Of a stretch of DNA of 64,000 bases, positions 1 through 59,525 are shown in pieces. The stretch comes from Camelus dromedarius (lineage: Eukaryota), in contig NC_087436.1 of assembly GCF_036321535.1 (NCBI RefSeq), positions 13,330,001 through 13,394,000 of the forward strand, written 5' to 3'. The position numbers and the translations under genes were made by a program. A model generated the notes under the pieces. The model was not told the DNA's origin and made no database searches. It worked only from the letters and a program-made list of their open reading frames with translations. Numbering within the stretch: the stretch's first letter is position 1; every line of letters begins with the position of its first letter.

Positions 1-1199
1 AAACTGAGAGTCTCCAGGGCAGGAAAAGGTCACCAGACTCTGTACAGCGCTTGACCTGTTTGAGTCCTTAACAAATGCTCTCGGGATGGGGATGCCTTTG
101 TTCTCATCCGTTCTGGTGGAAATGATTTAGTGAATGCTCTGCACCTTTCTCTCCCTTCAATGCCACCCTTGACCCCTCACCCCCCACCCTTTCACATTAG
201 ATCTTTTTGCTTCACTGGCCTTTCCGGATGAGGAAGAGTCTCACCAAATCAAGAATGCACCTTTTGAGAAGAGGTCAATTAGTCCTGGCGCGTAATGAGG
301 ACTAAGCTGCTCTCTCCACTTTGACCATTGATTTAAACACTATTCACAGGCTCCAGGGTGCTCATGAGGCAACGCTCTGGGAACTGATGAGGGACTTCAT
401 CCTCCATTCCCATAACCCATGCCCAGTCACCCCAGAGAATCAGCCACCAGCCACAGCTCCCTCCCATCCAGCTACATGGTAACCAAAACAAGCCCCTTCT
501 GTGTACAGTTTCTGTAGCGTGTAATTGCCAACTGGTGAAAGAGAAGAATAGAAAGGAAATGTATTGAGGGAGCTCTGACAGAATTATCATAACAAGGGTT
601 CTGAGGCCCCCACCCCACATGCCAGGAGGCATACTTTATGGCATGACCCATGCCTGCAGGCTGCCCAGTGCAGGAGCTGCTCCATTCAGAACCTGGCCCC
701 TTCACTAATGCTTGTGTTTCCTAAAGCCATGGACTCTCAGAGTCAAGAGACCATGGAGAGCCTTTCTCAGCATGAGGTTTCCTTCTTCATATCCTCCCCA
801 GGTGACCACCATGGAGACACCAACCACTATTTTCCTAGAATACATCCAGTTGAACCAAATAATTCATAAGCTATCCAACTTTCCTTGATTTTATCATTTC
901 TGCCCAAAGCTAAATTTCTCTGGTCCTTTCAATTGTGTCTCATAAGGCATGATTTTAAGGTTATTCCCTGTCCTTGTTACTCCGATAGTCAAGGTCAGTA
1001 AGGACATTCAAGCTCAGCCACATCTTGTAGATGTCTTCATTGACCTCTATGTGTTTTATTTGAGTTTAGCAGAGTAGGGTCAGAGGTTTGTGAAGAGTCT
1101 TGAGGTAGAAGGTCAGGGGAAGGGGAAGCAGCATTGGGTTAGGGTGAGCATACCTGGAGACGGGAACAAGGTTTCTCACTGTGAAAGAACTTCAGTCTT

Positions 1200-1390
1200 A
1201 GAAATAATCGTATCAATCTTGAGCACCTATCAGGAAGTATATCCGGCATTTCACATACATTAATCCTTACAAGAAAGTCAACCGTGTGACTGTCACTTTG
1301 CAATGAAAGTATGAAGTTCATAGAGATTAAATGATTTGCCCAAGGTCATGTAGCTAATCAGTGGCAAAAAATGTATGACTCCAAAACTTC
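1200..1390 (-). mobile_element. MIR SINE fragment
   Basis: MIR core-like motifs: 'ttcacatacattaatccttac', 'agagattaaatgatttgcccaaggtcatgtagctaatcagtggca'. Boundaries approximate. Confidence 0.65.
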
Positions 1391-3629
1391 TAACTTAGAA
1401 TAATTTCTCCTGGCCAATGCCACATCCTCAAATCATGCAAACTCTTAAGGTCCAGATGTTTTCTGTTTTGACCTTTCAGATCTGGCCATTCACTCCTCTT
1501 TGGTCTGATAATTCCGGGCTCAGCTCATTACCTACTATGGCCTTCAGTTCTTTCCTGATCCTTTCAGACGTCTTGCTCTGCACTTGGATATCTTCCTGAT
1601 ACCACAAACTAGTCAGAGTCCCTGGTTCTCCCCTTATTGTTCTGCGTGGACACACACTTGCACTCCCTTAAGAGAAAGGAAGATTCCAACCCCCTGAATC
1701 ACTGAATCCACGTGTTTCTTCCTGGCCAGTTCTGTGAAATGATACTCTCGGTGTTCAAAGAGGAAAGCTAGTTCTTTTGTTCTAGGGCTTCCAAATGCCA
1801 TTAGGTGAATTTTAAATTCTCCAAATGTGCTAAATGTTCACATTTTCCTTCTTTTTTTTTTCCTTTTGGTGGTGATCTTCCTCAAAGAATGCAGTGTCCT
1901 GTGGATGCTCCCTGATTGTCAGAAAGTGAAAGAAGGAATGGAACAAGCATCCAGTCATTTAAAGGCTCATTAAGCTGGCTTTCAGCTCATTCTCAAATGT
2001 TATAACTCGAGTCAAATCTCCAGAGACCTTTTTAAGCTCTTTTGCTTGTAATGCAGTTCAGTTGATTGAAAGCCATTAGAAAGTTCACATCAGAAATCCA
2101 TTGAAGTTGAACATGGACATGATATTCTGACTGAAGAACCTGGTTCTCATGAACTAAAGAGTACTTTGTACTTTTAACAACTGTTTAAAAACTAGAACCC
2201 CATGTCATCCAGTCTCTGCAGGTTATAGCATTCAAGTAAATACAGTCCAACGGCTATAATAATTAAAAGCAAATCACTCTTTCTTCAAATATCTTAAAGA
2301 ATGTTGAAGAGAACCAATTTATTACCCACAGTAGTGTTTCTTAAAAGTCTTTTTTCTCTAGTGTTTTCCTCCTCAGTAGCAATCAGTTTCCCAACTTCCC
2401 CAAAGCTTCTCCCTATATGCTTCACTCTTGACCTCTGGTCCCCAGATCTTCCTCTAAATACAAGTTGGCACAGACCTCCTCTTTCCTCTTGATATCCCCT
2501 ACCCAGAGCTTTTCTTGGAACCCAAAGCAACCCACTCTGTCCTCAAATACATGAAATCCCACAGTGCAAGGTAGTTAACACCCTACAGGCAAACCTTGAC
2601 TGATGGAGAATAGGAGCAGATTGATAAATGTCTCTTTGTTTCTTCCCCTGAGCATTTTGTGAGCATTTCACATTGTCTAGAGAGGTAATTTGTGAGATAC
2701 TTAATATCCTTTAGTAATTTTTTTTTTTTTTGCTTGAAGTAGTCAGAGTGAATTATGTTGTTTGCAACCAAGAATCACATCCAATAAAGATTCCAATAAT
2801 AGCTATTTGAGTTCCAGTTTCCCTGAGTCCTTGACAACACTGGTTATTATCAATTAAAAGAAGCAAACAAAATTAAACAAAAAATATTTCCTTGGGGTCC
2901 AGACTTATAGGACAAGAAAAGCAAATAAATTTGTACAGAGTGCCCACAGTTGAGCTAGTTCTTAACTCTGTAGCTACAAACCAGGTTTGAGATTCATTTA
3001 AACCAGTGATTGTAAGAATTTAGCTGGAAGGCCATTTCCATCCTTTTATTTCTCTGATCATTTTGTATGGTGACCCCAGGTTTCATGTGGTGCTTGGTGG
3101 AAAACATGTGTTTTGCAAAGCATGACTATTTCTGGTTGGTAAACTAGGAGATGGATTTTTCTGACCTGCTGGAGGATTTCACGGATTCCTTCTGAACAAA
3201 GGACCTGGTTCCCAAAGCATTTATCTAAATTGCCTTGCCTCAAAACGGCTTCTCAAACTTGAAAGTACCCCTTTCAGCAGAGTGAATACATTCCCTTTGG
3301 GATCTGGCAGCAGAGTAAGAAGTGGCACAACTTGATTTTAAAATACCTTTGAAATTTTGTTCTTATCAAAAAATTAATTTAAATTTTACATTCTGTTCAC
3401 TAAAATGTCAATGTTACATTTATATACATATAATAAACACAATTACTTACTAAGGACAATTTCAATTAAATAAATTAGATGGGATAATCGATTTATTTCT
3501 GCTACATCCCAAAATGAATTGATCTGATCCAGGTGTCAAATATGCTAGGTACACCTCTGGTTTGGACCCTACTTCACATCTATATCAGTACAGTTAGCCA
3601 GTGACCATCAGATACATGAAATACACAGA

Positions 3630-5195
3630 GCAAATTAACAAACCAAAAAGATGAAGCAGAGAGTAGACTGGGACAGAAGGAAACTTAAACCTCAACCTAA
3701 GCTCTTCAGAGATAAAAGAAATTATTGCCTCTTTGAATAGAAGTAACAAGAATAAGATATTATCTTAAAGAGAAAAGAAAGAAACTTTTGAGAACAAGAA
3801 AGAATTCTCAGGAATTTAAAGTAGAAACTCAAATTCTTTTAAAAAAATAAGTAGGGAAAAAAGACAATGTTGAGAAAATCTTAATAGAAATAGAACAAAA
3901 ATAAATTATACCAAGTGGGAAAATAGGATAAAAAAAAAGATTTTTTAAAATAGAGGATCAGTTCAGAAGCTCTGGTCTCTGACTAACAGGAGTTCCAGGA
4001 AGAACACCAAGAAAATAGACAGAAGTAAGAAATCAGATAACACCAGAAATGTTCCCAGAAATAAAGGCCATGAGTTCCAGAATTGAAATGGCCACCGAGT
4101 GAGAACAATTTAAAAAAACAAACAAACAAAAAAAAAAAACCAAGGCAAAACCACTGTGACATTTCTGAATATTGGGAATGAAGAAAAAGTCCTAAGAAAT
4201 CCCAGACAGAAATAACAGAGTCTATACCAAAAGAGAAGAATCAGCTTGGCACTGGATTTTCCAGAAGCACCTGGAAATCTAGAAGATTCTGGAGCACTAC
4301 TACCAATATTCTAAATTTTTAAAATATTTTCAATCTAGAATTTTATAAGCATCTAAACTATAACTTAATGAAATTATACAGTAAACATTTTCTGACATTC
4401 AAGATCTGAAAAAGATTACTTCCTATGTACCTTATGTCTGAAAGCTACTAGAGGATGTGTTCCATAAAAACAAGAAAGGAAACAGAGATAAAGGAATGCA
4501 CAGTATCTAGAAAATGAAGGGCATAACCTCAGGAAGAGACCATATTCAGACATGAAAAGAATTCCTTGATTAACACTTAAGGGAGTACCCAGGTCAGCAG
4601 CTATGCAATAGGCCTTGAAAGTCCTCAAGTTTGGGTTGGAGCAGGAAGATGAAGTACTCCAGAAACAGTGTCTCCTCCAAAGAGGGGGAAAAAAAGGGAC
4701 CCAGTTCCTGAAGTTATGTTCTTCTGAAGAATGTGCAAACTAATTAGTGTAGGAACATTAAGCAGATGTAAAAAATAATAATAATAATACAATTTGAACT
4801 CCAGGGGAAAAAAAAAAAGTGTACAAGAAAGGAAATGGAATCACAGATGTGTGCAACATTCACATTGTCCTAAAAATGCAAACACTGAGGGCTAATTTAA
4901 CAAATGATTGTGATTTAACTGCACGGTGAGGATGGGGGTGGAGTATGTATGTGTGAGAGAGGCCAGCTTCCGTCTTTCATAAGGAAAGTCCATCACTGCA
5001 ATTAGAAGTAGCAGTATTGTTCTATTGTTTAGAAAGATAGGACTAAATGCCAAGGAATTAAGTTAAAAGAAATGACAGCGGCTGCCTTTGGGGAAAATGG
5101 CTGGGGACAGGAAGGCAGAGGACTGCTATTTTAAGTCTCATGCTACTATCTTTTTCTAAAATTATGGACACATATTACTTTTGGCAAACATAGTT
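3630..5195 (+). mobile_element. Ancient HAL1/L1M-type element (degenerate ORF1 plus 3' end)
   Basis: A-rich ORF1-like text ('gaggatcagttcagaag...aacaggagttccagg', 'atcagcttggcactggatttt', 'ttttcaatctagaattttata') and a HAL1-like 3' end ('gctgcctttggggaaaatgg...gactgctatt...aaattatggacacatattactt'). Confidence 0.6.
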
Positions 5196-5589
5196 AAAAG
5201 AGAGAAGCCGGAAATCAGAATTCTAATGGAAACCCCGAGGTTTCGTGTGTATAAAATTAATATAAAATTAAAACATAAAATGGGGAGGGCACTTCAGCTT
5301 CCAACAAAATATCTCCTTAACCTCTCTGTGCCAGATCAGGCCTCTGGGCCACAGGAAGTCTCTGAAGGGCAGCGAAGGAGGACTTATGGAGCACCCACTG
5401 CATGCTAGTGGCCTGGCAGAAGATTCCCAGAGATCACTGTGACTGGCCTCACCACAGCCGTGAGGAATAGAGGAAGTGATTTTCCAGGTGAGAGGCTAAG
5501 TCCCAAAAGGATGAAGAACTTGACTGCAGGTATTCTCTGTATTTGTGAGTGCAAGCTGCAGTTACTCTGCAGACAGACAGATAAAACAG

Positions 5590-5720
5590 TCAGTGATACT
5601 TGTGAAGCCATTTTACAGATGAGAAAACTGAGGCTCAGCAGGTCAAGTGGCTTAACCAAGTCAGTAAGTGGCAGAGCTGCAGAGCGGCCCCAGCCTCTGA
5701 TATAACACTCCACTCTGAAC
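5590..5720 (-). mobile_element. MIR SINE fragment
   Basis: 'ccattttacagatgagaaaactgaggctcag...aagtggcttaaccaagtc...gtaagtggcagagct' matches the MIR core. Confidence 0.75.
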
Positions 5721-6691
5721 CTCTGGAGCACAGAGACCATGTCTTACCCCTGTTAGTGGCCCCGTACCAGGTAAACTGGACCTGGCACACAGGACTTGCT
5801 CAGCCAGGACCCACTGACTGAGACAGGCAGAGCCCTGAAGAGGTCTCACCTCGATTACCAGGCTAGGAGAATTTCCAGCAGACCCAAGCCCCCAATTCTT
5901 CCTCCTTGTACCTGCTGGGCACGTGACCTCTGAGAAGGCTGCCTGGGTCTAGCTCCTGCAGGGGCGGGACCCTCCATCCAAACAAGAGAGAACCATTTGG
6001 CAATCCTTCAAGTGACCCAAAGAGCCAGGTTACAGCTGCACCCCTGCTTTAATACTGAAATGTCACACATTTTAAATTATAGGACAATAACAATTTCAGT
6101 CTTAAAAAAAATAGCAAAATTAAATCTTTAATACAAAAAAACAATGAAATCATGGAAACAATTTTGGAGTCCACAGAAATTTTGAAAATGGCATTAGCAA
6201 ACTGTGAAATCAGGGAGATAAAAATCAGATGCCCTGAGGGGGAACAGCCATACGCCCCAGCCCAGCCCCCTCACCCAGAGTCCTGGAGAGTCCCGTTTCC
6301 ATCCTGCGGGTCCAGGAGGCAGGGGGTCTGGAGCTAATGCATGTCTCCTGCTCGGCGCCTTGGAAAAGCACGGAATGAGTGAACTTTCCAGCATGTGATG
6401 TTGGTCTTCCTGAAGACTGAGAGGATAGTCTGTGGAAACCAGCACCCTGGGAGAAGCCCTGGGAGGCAGAAGGGTGCACTTCAAAGGATCTTAGAGAAGT
6501 AATTTCATTCCTACAGCTTCTCTTTGGTGGTCTTTGTGGGAGTCAGAATCACAGGGCCTATCTCTGGGGCTTCCATGATAATTTTGAAATTATTCCCAGG
6601 ACAAAGCACTTGTTGTAGGGATTAAGTGCTGGAGAGCCGGCATAGAGAACATGGTAGAATACGAAACGTTTTCAAAAGCTTCTCTTTGCTC

Positions 6692-6775
6692 TTTTTTTTT
6701 TTAAATTGAAGTACAGTTAGTTACAATGTGTCAATTTCTAGTGTACAGCATGATGCCCCAGTCATGCATATACGT
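6692..6775 (-). mobile_element. Short L1 3'-terminal fragment
   Basis: Poly-T followed by 'aattgaagtacagttagttacaatgtgtcaatttctagtgtacagca', the reverse complement of the L1 3' tip at 28830-28880. Confidence 0.75.
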
Positions 6776-8496
6776 GAGAGCTTTAAGGTCGTGGTAACAT
6801 GAGCAGAATTAATAGCCTGCTCTTGATCAGGAAATTTCTGAGTTGTTTCTCTTTATGACTCATGGGACCAGAAAGATGGGGAAAGAATATCTAAGGAAGG
6901 GTGTTTAATAGGGTGGTGACCAATCTAATTCTCTGCCACAATTGTCAAGTTCAAGGCAGCCTGAAGCGAGGGCGAGTTGAATGTGTGCTGGCAAATGAGT
7001 GTGGGCAAGAAGGGTACTGTGGTCCTGGGGCCAAGAAACACAGGTGCCCGCCTCGTCCTCAAGAAAAACAAGGCTCAAGTCCCCCAGAATAGAATTCAGA
7101 GAGAAGAAACAGGGGAATCTTTCCATGGAAGTTCATTCGTGAGGTTTTCCTGGACCTGCCACCCCGTGGCTTTCTTGCTTTCCTGCCCACTGGCTCATGG
7201 GAATTTCTGAAGGAAATTCAGGCCCTCTGGAATATCACATTTTCAGTTTCTTCTCTCTGACCTTGAGGTTGCAGAAAATGTCAAGTGTAGAAGAGTGCTT
7301 CTGTCTTCCACCCTGGGTATTAAACACTTGGGGGGCATCTGTCACACCACCAGGTGCTGCCAGACCTGCCTGGAGCCAGCCTCCTAGGGGCAGGGTGACC
7401 GCCTCCATCCTCACTTCTGCTGGATGGCTATTCAAGATCAGCAGATGCAGCACCACAGAAATGCAAGTTTCTCTAAATCATTTATTCCTGCCCTGATCAT
7501 CTCGCATTTTAACAACATCAGAAGGGGAACTTGGATAGTGGGGGCCAGCGTATCACAAGAAAAGGCATGAAGGCAAAACTGAACAGCCTATTCTTGTCTT
7601 CAAGAATGTTTTCCAACCATCTTTGCTCCTGGAATCCTTGAAAACCTGTAGTACTTCCTGGGAGAGTGTTTTTCTACCCAGAAGGGCATGGATGTTAAGC
7701 ATCCTACTTCAGGGCAGAAATGAAGGCTTTACAACATTATTTGTTTCCCAGGCGTTTTGCCCGACTATGACTATGCTGCTTGGCTTTAAGATCTGCCTTG
7801 CCCTGCAAATCAACAGGCCCCAAGGGCACTTCTGCTTCAACTCAAAACAGTCTCTGCCAGATTTTTCATCCTTACATCCACCAAAATATTTTAAATGCTG
7901 CTGAGTGCAGTTCTCTTTTGTGGGGTGCTATTCAAGATCAATAAATGCAACCCTGCTTCTCTGCATCCAGAATCTTTCTATGGCAAACACTGAGCTTATA
8001 AAGGCTGCCTCCACACTGATGATGGGATCAAAATCAGAACAATTGCTCTGAAAGATGATCTGATGCTACGTTTTATAATGAAATCCCCCAAATGAGGACA
8101 TCTGAAGTCATGCTTCCTTTCCAATAACTTATCCTGTGGCTGTATTTAAAGTTATTCCTAAAGACATTCATGTCAGTAGGCTTTATTATAGGAAAAAAAT
8201 CTAAATCAGTCTGAAGGTCCATTAATACAACATTGTAGAACTTGACACAACACTGTAAACTGACTATACTTTGATAAAAATATATATACATAGAGTAAAA
8301 AAATACATTGTTTCAATTAATTATTGTACATCCATACACCAGACAAAGATCTCTTGTGCCACCAATCAGAATAGTGTCATGAAGGTCTATTTACTGACAG
8401 GCAAAATGCACAGGTTGCAATACAGAATGTTAAAGTGGGCCACAAACAATGTACAGTATGATAAAGTTTATAATGTACGTGTGGACACAGAGAATG

Positions 8497-13900: not shown

Positions 13901-14041
13901 CGCTTACGGTCATTTTAAAATGCTAAGTTTAGGGGTGGAGTACAGCTCAGTGGTAGTGCGTGCTTAGCATGCATGAGGTCCTGGGTTCACACCCCAGTAC
14001 TTCCATTAATTTTTTTTAAAACATTAAAATAAATAAACCTA

Positions 14042-14369
14042 CAATGCCGTGTTGGATGGAGCCAACTGCATCATACTGTCTGGAGAGACGGCCACAGGGG
14101 ACTGCCCCCTGGAGGCTGTTTGCATGCAGCACCTGTTTGCCCGTGAGGCAGAGGGCGCCATCTACCATTTGCAATTATTAGAGGAGCTAAGCCTCCTGGC
14201 ACCCGTTACCAGCCACCCCACGGAAGCCGCCACCGTGGGTGCTGTGGAGGCCTCCTTCAAGTGCTGCAGTCGGGCCATCATCGTCCTCACCACGTCTGGC
14301 AGGTCTGCTCACCAGGTGGCCAGATACCGCCCCCGCGTCCCCATCACTGCTGTGACCCAGAATCCCCAG
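14042..14369 (+). pseudogene. PKM: PKM (M2 isoform) processed pseudogene, 5' piece (~residues 350-458)
   Basis: Translates [31 protein letters not shown]...[70 protein letters not shown]. Intronless, contains the M2-specific exon, 5'-truncated. Confidence 0.96.
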
Positions 14370-14370
14370 G

Positions 14371-15593
14371 TTTTTGTTTTTTTTTTTTTTTTTTTTGCAA
14401 ATGAAATCACATTCGTCCAGATTTTATTCGCTCAAAACTACTAGGGAAGCAGTAGGATTTGGTTTAAACACAGCCAAAGAGCAGGAATTTACCTTAGTGT
14501 TAACTCGGAAGCAATCCTGTTGTGAATGTTGTAGCCGGGGTCCGGCAGCATGGGGGCCGGGGCCCCGCTGTGTTCGCTGAGGAATCCCGCGGCTCTCTCA
14601 GTTCAGGCTCCGGCTCGCTAGAGGTGGACCCACTGTTGATGGCGTAGACGCTCTCTGCTACTCCCTGAGCTGAAGCACAGCCATCTGGCTCCTTCTTCTC
14701 CCTGGGACTAGACAGTCCTGGGAGGACAGCCATCCTCCCAGTCTGCCTGGTGGGCAGCAAGGACACGGTGTAGTCTGCAATGATCCCACTCATGTCTAAG
14801 TTGCACGCCTGGTCGAAGGCTAGGAAACCAATGTTGGCATTTGCCTCACACACCACAAAGGAGCCATCGTCCATGTTGAGGAGATCGATGCCACAGAAGT
14901 CCGTGTCCGTGATGTTGGACACCTGGATAGCCAGCTGCTTGCCTTGTTCCGTCAGTGGGCACATGACGCTCAGGCCACCAAGAGAGCAGTTGCTCTGCGT
15001 CCATCTGTCTGTACTGCAGCAAAGCATGGAGCCTATCACCTGGCCCCCAACAGCCACCACCCGGATATCCTTTCCACAGGACTCCTTCAGGAACAGGTAG
15101 GACACGTCAAGGCAGGTCAGATGGCAGATGTCTGAGAGGTGGTGTTTATCTCTTGTGAGAAAAATAGCTTTTCCCTGATGTCGGCGCGTGCTCTTCACCA
15201 CCACCGGCTAGCCCAGCGGCTCGGCTTCATCGATCATTTTGGAAAAGTCTTCATGCCCACCGTAGGAGAAGGTGTCTGGCATGGGGACCCCATGTCCAGC
15301 CAGCTCCTGGGACATCCAGAATTTGTTGATGCAGTTTAAAATGCCCTGTGGGCAGTTGACTAAGCGGCAGCCCAACTTCTCCAGGTGTCTCAGGACTGTG
15401 ATGTCACTATCCGATTGCACTGAGGGTGTGGGCACCCCGGACAAGCACCACATCTAGGAAAGCGGTGAGCGCCTTCTGGCTCAGCTGCAGGCCGAGGTTG
15501 CCGCCGACCGTGGTGTTGGCGATCTGGTCCAGGAGCATCGCCCGGAAGCGCACGTCCTGCTCAGAGCAGCACTGCTTCGGGGGCGCAGGATCT
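14371..15593 (-). pseudogene. RIMKLA: RIMKLA (NAAG synthetase II, ATP-grasp) processed pseudogene, antisense inside the PKM retrocopy
   Basis: Minus-strand frames give CSEQDVRFRA...[31 protein letters not shown]...DEAEPLG, and VVKSTR...[19 protein letters not shown]...[25 protein letters not shown]. Intronless. Stop at 14489-14491, AATAAA at 14423-14428, poly(A) at 14371-14396. Disabled by TAG at 15208-15210, frameshifts and a 3-codon deletion; lacks the first ~20 codons. Confidence 0.95.
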
Positions 15594-16448
15594 TCCCTGT
15601 GGTGTATAAGGACCCAGCGCAGGAGGCCTGGGCAGAGGACATGGACCTCTGGGTGAACTTGGCCACGAACGTTGGCAAGGCCCGAGGCTTCATCAAAACG
15701 GGAGATGTAGTCATTGTGCTGATTGGGTGGCGCCCTGGGTCTGCCTTCACCAACACCAGCAGGTCCTTCCTGGGCCATGATGGGCCCGGAGCCCCTCCTC
15801 CAGCCCCTGTCCCACCCGCCTTCCCCAACCCATCCATTAGGCCAGCAGCACTTGTAGTGCTCACTTGGGGCTGTAACGTGGCACTGGTGAGCTGGGATGT
15901 CAGGAAGACAATGCCTCTGTGAAACATGGCTGTTTGGAAGACCCTGTTTCGGTGCAGTAGTTCAGAGCTGGGTCCCCCATCATGTGGCCCCGTCCAAGCA
16001 AGGGACGAAGGAGGGCTGCAGGCAGGACTGGAGGCCCCAGAGCTTCACACAGAGGATGACAATTTTCCTTCTTCTTTTCCTTTGTGTACTCGTCTCAGTT
16101 CCTGCAGAAAATGATACCCAGAGAACTCCCAGCCCTGGCCTGGGATCAGGAGAGAGCCAGCAGAGTTAGGGCAGGGGGCAGTGGTTCCAGTTTCTGCAGA
16201 CTCTGGCTCCAGCCCTGGCCCTTACTTGCTTCTCCAACCCCCTTGGCCTCCCTCACTCCCACCTTGATCATTGGGCACGTCTGTTCCCTTCACTCCACTC
16301 GGCTGTCGCTGCAAACACTTCATCCTCTCCCTTCCTTCTTCCCAACTACTGCAGCTGTCTCCAGGCCTGTTGCTGTAGAGTACAGCCTATCTGTATGTCG
16401 ATAAACCACAGCTGAAGAAATAAATAAATAATAAATAAATAAATAGAC
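15590..16448 (+). pseudogene. PKM: PKM processed pseudogene, 3' piece (~residue 469 to stop, full 3' UTR, A-rich tail)
   Basis: IFPVVYKDPAQEAWAEDMDLWVNLATNVGKARGFIKTGDVVIVLIGWRPGSAFTNT, then a 1-nt frameshift before the native TGA (15778-15780). PKM-like 3' UTR ends 'gtcgataaaccacagctgaag', followed by an (AAAT)n tail from 16418. TSD aaataaataaaccta (14027-14041) vs aaacaaacaaaccta (16449-16463). Confidence 0.95.
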
Positions 16449-16885
16449 AAACAAACAAACCTAATTACTTCCCCCACCAATTAATTAATTAATTAATTAA
16501 ATGCTAAGTTTACTTAGTACATATACAAATGATTTAATTTTTTACTTTTTTAAAAATCAGTTTTAAAACCAAAATCCTTTAACTTAACCGAAAATCACAG
16601 CCAGGCCTATGAGCACTGCTTCTCAAGGATTTGGAAGGAGAAGCATGTGTTCGTCCTGTATCTCTCAGCTATGATGACCCAAACCCAACTCAGACTTAAG
16701 CAAAAGAAAGACTTACTGGAGTTACAAAATGAGATACTGGGGGTAAAGTTGGCCTCAAGGACCCCAAGGGACTCAAGATATGTCATCGAAGCTCACTCTC
16801 TTGCTCTCTGTACTTCTTGGCTCTGACTTCCTCTGTCTATTGGCCATATTCTCTTTCTTTCTTTTATTGAATATAAGCTTTCTCC

Positions 16886-30676: not shown

Positions 30677-30770
30677 GGGAGGGTATAGCTCAGAGAGAGA
30701 GCAAGTGCTTAGCACACACGAGGTTCTGGGTTCAAACCCCAGTGCCTCCATTAAAAAATAAAGAGAGAAG
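30677..30770 (+). mobile_element. Vic-1-like tRNA-derived SINE (short form)
   Basis: 'gggagggtatagctcag...gtgcttagcacacacgaggttctgggttcaaaccccagtgcctccattaaaaaataaa'; flanking direct repeat agaataagac at 30662-30671 and 30771-30780. Confidence 0.88.
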
Positions 30771-53196: not shown

Positions 53197-53685
53197 TGTA
53201 TCTGCTTGCTAGGGCTGCCATCACAAAGTACCACAGACTAGGAGGCTCAAACAACAGAAATTTATTTTCTCACAGTTCTGGAAGCTAGGATTCTACAATG
53301 TCAGTAAGGTTGGTTTCCTCTGAGGTTACTCTACTTGGTTTGAAGATGGCCATTTTCTTGTTGTGTCTTTTTTTTTTAAATTTTTTATTTAATGGAGGTA
53401 GTGGGGATTGAACCCAGGACCTCGAATGTGTTAAGCATGTGCTCTACCACTGAGCTATACCTTCCCCACTCCTTGTGTCTTCATTTTGTCTTTTCTTTGT
53501 GCATATCTGTATCTTAATCTCCTGGCTGTAAAAGGACCCCAATCATATTGGATTAGGGCACACCCTAATGACCTCATTTTAACTTAATTACCTCTTTAGT
53601 GACTTTATCTCCAGCCACATTCTGAGATCCTGGGGTTTAGAACTTCACAAATGAATTGGGGGAGTACACAACTCAGCCCATAACA
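53197..53685 (-). mobile_element. MaLR LTR (MLT1B/C-like) containing a SINE
   Basis: 'tgctagggctgccatcacaaagtaccacagactaggaggctcaaacaacagaaatttattttctcacagttctgg...actcagcccataaca'. Confidence 0.9.
53370..53467 (-). mobile_element. Vic-1-like tRNA-derived SINE
   Basis: Reverse complement 'ggggaaggtatagctcagtggtagagcacatgcttaacacattcgaggtcctgggttcaatcccc...' with A tail; direct repeat ttgtgtctt at 53361-53369 and 53473-53481. Confidence 0.9.
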
Positions 53686-59385: not shown

Positions 59386-59525
59386 GGGGAGGGTATAGCT
59401 CAGTGGCAGAGTGCATGCCTAGCATGCACGAGGTCCTGGGTTCACTCCCCGGTATCTCCATTTAAATAAATAAATAATTAAATAAATAAACCTAATTATT
59501 TCCCCCCAGCTAAAAGAAAAAAAAA
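59386..59525 (+). mobile_element. Vic-1-like tRNA-derived SINE, long-tail form
   Basis: 'ggggagggtatagctcagtggcagagtgcatgcctagcatgcacgaggtcctgggttcactcccc...aaataaacctaattatttccccccagc' plus A tail. Confidence 0.92.

Follow-up and report, generated by a model that had tools for sequence, protein, structure and literature searches.

A retrocopy of the RIMKLA mRNA interrupts, in opposite orientation, a retrocopy of the PKM mRNA in the 64,000-nucleotide stretch of the Camelus dromedarius genome analysed here (contig NC_087436.1, positions 13,330,001 to 13,394,000; hereafter the window), and we give about an even chance to the proposal that a single LINE-1-driven integration using two mRNAs made this sandwich. 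The PKM copy itself lies in a tRNA-derived SINE, and three nested inserts (SINE, PKM copy, RIMKLA copy, from the outside inwards) are thus found within 13918–16512 of the window. The junctions were mapped by base-level alignment to the spliced exons of both parents from the same genome, in which the PKM parent is located on G000:C29, at ~25.06 Mb, and the RIMKLA parent on G000:C14, at 40.76–40.79 Mb. The RIMKLA-in-PKM unit is a dead pseudogene, for which no function is implied.

The SINE and the PKM copy present all the marks of ordinary L1-made insertions, namely TT/AAAA sites and TSDs, and the two nick sites are those that the first-pass annotation had pointed out. The SINE is on the plus strand and has a left TSD of 14 nt (13918–13931) with an exact copy at 16499–16512 and a TT/AAAA nick site at 13915–13920. 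Compared with a consensus built on 29 other copies, its 5′ part (13932–14041) shows differences at 6 of 73 core positions, and its 3′ remainder, together with the right TSD, covers 16464–16512. We take the family to be Vic-1. ARAGORN called tRNA-Ala/Leu genes at 30679–30750, 53393–53464 and 59389–59460 of the window; the last two match the SINE and are therefore heads of SINE copies, not tRNA genes. The left TSD of the PKM copy (14026–14041, plus strand) corresponds to the last 16 nt of the SINE 5′ part, with a TT/AAAA nick site at 14024–14029, and a decayed A-rich tail followed by the right TSD (16448–16463, matching the left one at 13 of 16 nt) occupies 16418–16463 of the same strand. The PKM and RIMKLA copies are both enclosed by this one pair of TSDs, which would be equally true of any later nesting.

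The PKM retrocopy is split into two pieces on the plus strand. Piece A (14042–14369) is 5′-truncated and spliced, with exon joints at 14136 and 14303 and an M2-type exon, and is identical to the parent at 294 of 328 nt; piece B (15590–16417) has an exon joint at 15675 and the entire 3′ UTR up to the poly(A) site, with 746 of 836 columns identical, and the A-rich tail extends beyond the 3′ end of the parent. Between them, on the minus strand, the RIMKLA retrocopy (14397–15593) comprises five spliced exons joined at 15492, 15260, 15173 and 14978, with 1104 of 1210 aligned columns identical to its parent. Introns are precisely absent in relation to the parents at all four joints of the RIMKLA copy and all three of the PKM copy. 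The RIMKLA copy starts ~60 nt into the coding sequence, being 5′-truncated, and has an intact 3′ end, with the proximal AATAAA signal at 14423–14428 followed by a 27-nt poly(A) tail (14370–14396, minus strand), which reads as a T run on the plus strand, broken by G at 14370 and 14376, and abuts piece A directly. The possibility that this tail is a genomic A-run of the parent was rejected because the parent sequence continues differently.

The RIMKLA copy encodes a RimK-like ATP-grasp domain and is inactivated by a premature stop at 15208–15210 and by frameshifts; these lesions, together with the 5′ truncation, led us to reject a functional chimera as improbable. The closest named proteins to its frame, among the best 120 of 204 matches of a protein search, are NAAG synthase A, and the RIMKLA paralogue on C25 is only 72% alike. 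In Camelus ferus and C. dromedarius, public gene models that bear the name NAAG synthetase A rest on this pseudogene (14500–15778 of the window), with identities to the locus of 95% and 99%, respectively. The C. ferus model (P0004) starts in antisense PKM and reads through the joint between the two copies; the C. dromedarius model is P0017. At the PKM parent (L006 and L013 on G000:C29), three residue changes (V to A, C to R and A to S) were observed where the retrocopy still has the amino acid found in other mammals; they thus arose on the camel gene after copying. In this genome we found at least one retrocopy of the PKM 3′ region and at least two of RIMKLA. The second RIMKLA retrocopy (L011:1500–1836, on G000:C6 at ~65.94 Mb) is a minus-strand copy of ~145 nt, with the same proximal poly(A) signal, cleavage ~10 nt earlier and an apparent decayed TSD, as judged by eye; another copy of the SINE that occurs at the window locus interrupts it (11-nt TSD, 1585 and 1778).

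The aligned PKM sequence ends at 14369 and continues from 15590, with exactly 30 nt absent in between (34 if the shared ATCT is assigned to RIMKLA). The first-pass annotation, made from the sequence alone, had placed the break at the same positions and had named ten missing codons, TARQAHLYRG, none of them duplicated. The PKM gene of this genome has these codons, encoded by the very 30 nt that are gone from the copy. Around the RIMKLA copy, where a TSD of about 7–20 nt would be expected, none was found, and the longest word common to the flanks is a 7-mer away from the junctions, in agreement with the earlier reading. An exact repeat of at least 8 nt is kept in only 12 of 29 SINE copies of the same family; a TSD that had merely decayed was rejected here because the alignment to the parent shows 30 nt lost rather than a decayed duplicate. 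The pre-insertion site at the end of the RIMKLA tail is CCAG/AC, with five of six mismatches to TTTT/AA, and the description of this end as a site foreign to the L1 endonuclease stands.

At the other end, the ATCT at 15590–15593 can be read as PKM or as antisense RIMKLA, as had been noticed previously; it is present in both parents, so the 4-nt overlap holds, and the C. ferus gene model has the same joint. The facts stated in the first-pass annotation are all borne out. An overlap of at least 4 nt occurs at 1.8% of random joints of the PKM and RIMKLA sequences. The match extends to 8 of 10 nt up to the joint, which is found at 0.07% of random joints, for a window that was chosen post hoc. Base-level alignment also showed that the extra G at 14370 is real; it may have arisen by addition of a base or by mutation of a T, or be left over from a TSD. 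It was rejected as proof of non-templated addition because tails of this age are impure: the A-tails of SINE copies of the same age often contain non-A letters, and the RIMKLA tail holds the second G noted above. Near the 5′ joint, a 3-nt deletion, a 2-nt insertion and a substitution are clustered at 15576–15583, 7–17 nt from the joint. This cluster belongs to the retrocopy branch, is common to the C. ferus model and could reflect error-prone joining or a single later complex mutation. Its match to 8 nt of antisense PKM, a GC-only 8-mer, was treated as chance.

The divergence of the two copies from their parents was compared by site class. At non-CpG 0-fold sites, 19 of 295 positions differ in PKM against 37 of 641 in RIMKLA (ratio 1.1, 95% interval 0.6–1.9). 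After polarisation with outgroup proteins, at residues conserved there, the counts are 12 of 211 and 27 of 544, with piece A of PKM represented by just the part spanned by the outgroup fragment. The pooled Mantel-Haenszel ratio of PKM to RIMKLA at 0-fold sites is 1.12 (0.73–1.74). When all classes of coding sites are taken together, the ratio is 1.27 (0.92–1.73, p=0.14), PKM being a little more diverged. UTR sites did not enter the pooled test, since the short UTR of RIMKLA seems to be under constraint in the parental gene (2/88 vs 43/601). By these counts the two copies appear to be of one age within error, which is a factor of ~1.7, with a slight lean to an older PKM. For absolute ages, a substitution rate of about 2e-9 per year was taken as the lower of two values. 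The 5–6% non-CpG divergence gives an estimated age of ~10–28 My, depending on the rate, the higher of which (5e-9 per year) was derived from values in the cited section of PMC8605555. This estimate brackets the divergence of Old World camelids from those of the New World, placed at 11–25 mya in the text of PMC4884201.

An assembly artefact or a recent rearrangement is extremely improbable as the source of this layout. No point in its support was found, and 20 of 24 listed sequencing runs, from eight studies and two organisms, share 0.92–0.98 of the sampled words of 14042–16417, in a comparison that covered word sharing only, where three runs are flagged as a possible source and the four rows with a share of 0.00 count as no evidence. 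The C. ferus gene model also argues against it, since it crosses the same ATCT joint with 111 of 122 residues identical and so covers the 5′ joint. Relatives of the arrangement were searched for in several ways. No look-alike of the window turned up among the stretches of DNA scanned. The frame across the 5′ joint returned three matches among 17 candidates, all plain PKM-like; the RIMKLA frame, in the best 120 of 204 matches, led to the two models of this copy, both from Camelus and with the 5′ joint in common, and to none from alpaca or llama; and an exact 23-nt pattern of the tail and the RIMKLA end gave 0 matches in metagenome contigs. Open-access text yielded no report of such a layout in the germ line, or of this locus, although Fig. 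S7 of PMC11702581 may hold a similar case.

That ordinary target-primed reverse transcription placed a copy of the PKM mRNA in the A-rich end of the SINE is demonstrated by the TT/AAAA site, the TSD and the tail. The start of the RIMKLA cDNA is its poly(A) end, which is attached to the 3′ terminus of the sense (second) strand of PKM, where there is no T-rich primer; at its other end the cDNA overlaps PKM by 4 nt, 30 nt further on. Since the PKM sense strand exists only during second-strand synthesis or after its completion, the question is one of timing. In the single integration that we favour, the PKM cDNA template would have been broken, gapped or blocked during second-strand synthesis. ORF2p would then have reached the end at ...CCCCAG, possibly adding the G, and have jumped over to a RIMKLA mRNA at its 3′ end without needing T residues, copying ~1.2 kb. 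The new 3′ end, ...ATCT, would have annealed to the ...AGAT 3′ end of the other piece of PKM cDNA, and end-joining would have completed the product with 30 nt lost. A mirror route, in which first-strand synthesis made a detour over a free RIMKLA cDNA and jumped back to a trimmed PKM mRNA, would give the same product. Run-off and jump of ORF2p and the subsequent annealing would account jointly for the missing TSD, the missing nick site, the gap and the overlap. The opposite orientation of the copies excludes same-orientation routes, such as RNA ligation as in U6-L1 chimeras or a single switch of reverse transcription; the template switch or co-integration suggested in the first-pass annotation is the reading that we prefer, set during second-strand synthesis or at a break in the cDNA, and a simple first-strand switch between the two mRNAs, which would leave both copies in the same orientation, falls away.

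Activities of the kind needed have been reported. ORF2p carries out non-templated addition and template jumping in vitro, on RNA and DNA templates, according to experiments described in PMC10830420. In L1-over-expressing cells, PMC11702581 describes nine insertions made from two transcripts, from a data set with 99 L1 and 235 pseudogene insertions; opposite orientations among the nine are explained there by cDNA ends joined with microhomology. At the camel locus, a single event is supported by the anatomy of the junctions and by the indistinguishable ages of the PKM and RIMKLA copies. In addition, the chance that an independent retrocopy landed in the 1.2-kb PKM copy is 0.0003–0.004 for an assumed 500–8000 later retrocopies, and these low odds would, by a rough reckoning, be cut further by the need for a non-canonical outcome, target-site deletions having been counted in 350 of 8673 human insertions in the data cited from PMC12016303.

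Several considerations weigh against the single integration. The chemistry of the junctions is identical for a break in a nascent or in a finished PKM copy, so the sequence alone cannot prove the former. The slightly higher divergence of PKM over all coding sites is in the direction expected if RIMKLA came later, even if it is not significant. Equal age is a weak argument, since the SINE is similarly diverged (6/73) though certainly an earlier and separate event, and separate events can therefore look the same age here. In a genome that holds retrocopies by the thousand, chance alone would be expected to produce between a few and some tens of nestings. Finally, the rates from over-expressing cell lines may be inapplicable to the germ line.

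Two sequences of separate events could have given the same structure. In one, which we hold to be rather unlikely, a later double-strand break opened the finished PKM copy, ORF2p used the RIMKLA poly(A) as template to lengthen the left end, and joining at ATCT connected the cDNA with the resected right end. No endonuclease nick and no T-rich primer would be needed; this is the break patching already proposed in the first-pass annotation. The absent TSD, the loss of 30 nt, the non-consensus site and the microhomology all speak for such a capture, and target deletions accompany 18 of the 21 non-classical L1 insertions tallied in the cited part of PMC1920257. Reverse transcription at pre-existing ends is likewise reported in PMC11702581, and the PKM/RIMKLA divergence ratio over all coding sites leans the same way without being significant. 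On the other side, the intact 3′ end and tail are unlike both the published endonuclease-independent class and the mRNA captures at induced breaks, and a break plus a rare mRNA capture would have been required in a 1.2-kb target soon after the first insertion.

The other sequence of events is not one of the two readings offered in the first-pass annotation, which did not mention a candidate L1 endonuclease-like site at 15604–15609 (plus strand; GTGT/AA in the parent, GTAT/AA here). An ordinary target-primed RIMKLA insertion at this site, with a TSD of 14–18 nt, would have been followed by a deletion of ~42–75 nt. This deletion would have stopped within the T run or beside it and have cost both the 30 nt and the left copy of the TSD, of whose end the G at 14370 could be a leftover. 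From this two-mismatch site it is 18 nt to where ATCT starts and 14 nt to where it ends, which are typical TSD lengths, and no better one exists on that strand of the PKM copy, where 17 of 1175 positions fall in this best class. A plausible and usable nick site a TSD-length away thus weighs against a single event and leaves this course more alive than the earlier annotation implies. An intact tail and 5′ microhomology are also normal for 5′-truncated copies made by target-primed reverse transcription, as described in PMC11702581; the microhomology is non-diagnostic for that reason. The RIMKLA copy on C6, by its apparent TSD, indicates that RIMKLA mRNA is an ordinary L1 substrate, retrotransposed normally at least once. 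A site of this kind is in range for 14–18% of random joints, which makes it a modest sign, and two independent rare events are needed, the largest of the 16 indels in the two copies being 9 nt. On balance we regard an insertion followed by a deletion as unlikely.

The closest parallels to a single integration of two mRNAs are the two-transcript ORF2p insertions of Mendez-Dorantes et al. (PMC11702581), which, in the examples given there, likewise combine two mRNAs at one site, opposite orientation and microhomology or untemplated bases at the joints. The camel locus has two mRNAs in one TSD pair, the ATCT overlap at an internal joint and a G at 14370 of uncertain origin. In the SEMA3C case of the same paper, too, additional cDNAs lie captured between two parts of a single mRNA, but these parts are described as mutually inverted, whereas those of PKM are collinear. 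In the opposite-orientation cases explained there, the two cDNAs were primed from two genomic ends, while the camel RIMKLA cDNA was primed within the PKM copy. Those events are reported as somatic, from over-expression and of proven one-event origin; the camel case is fixed in the germ line and its one-event origin is inferred.

Other known classes match in part. The RIMKLA copy resembles the NCLI of Sen et al. (2007; PMC1920257), as characterised in the cited passages, in having no TSD, a non-consensus site, a target deletion and microhomology. NCLI are L1 sequences there, and inserts of this endonuclease-independent class are by definition 3′-truncated and devoid of a poly(A) tail, whereas the RIMKLA copy is a cellular mRNA with a 27-nt tail and, because that tail is kept, lies outside the published definition. 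RMDR in mouse zygotes (Ono et al. 2015; PMC4516963) is similar in its spliced mRNA copies, short microhomology and lack of TSD, but the captured pieces presented in that report are internal and without poly(A) tails, at Cas9-induced breaks, and the RIMKLA copy is tailed. Twin priming, with or without switching, also yields opposite cDNAs joined at microhomology, in many cases with a short gap or overlap, in the description of Zumalave et al. (10.1101/2024.08.27.596794); it involves one RNA with an inverted 5′ piece, while in the camel locus the inverted piece comes from the mRNA of another gene and both PKM pieces are on the plus strand. In relation to an ordinary L1 processed pseudogene, the RIMKLA copy is likewise spliced, tailed, 5′-truncated and decayed, but lacks, in its present state, both a TSD and a T-rich primer site.

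The RIMKLA-in-PKM arrangement is a rare fossil of a known L1 process and not a new system. Its layout differs from that of the two-mRNA insertions described, in that the second mRNA was primed inside the first copy and the pieces of the latter are collinear. Possibly, though we would place this below an even chance, it is a germ-line fossil of a rescue in which ORF2p, its second-strand synthesis having broken down, moved over to an unrelated mRNA at the 3′ end of the latter and rejoined the first cDNA, leaving an A / inverted-B / A order with a small gap. The course of L1 second-strand synthesis, and whether ORF2p or the host carries it out, are described as unsettled in the discussion cited from PMC10830420. 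A tailed cDNA primed in the second strand of a nascent retrocopy would be in-vivo germ-line evidence of ORF2p activity and of template jumping there. One locus cannot prove that activity, and its value is that of a search template, namely an inverted, tailed, TSD-less retrocopy in a retrocopy of the same age. If the proposed rescue is true, such sandwiches would be a recognisable and countable class in mammalian genomes, a record of in-vivo second-strand synthesis by ORF2p.
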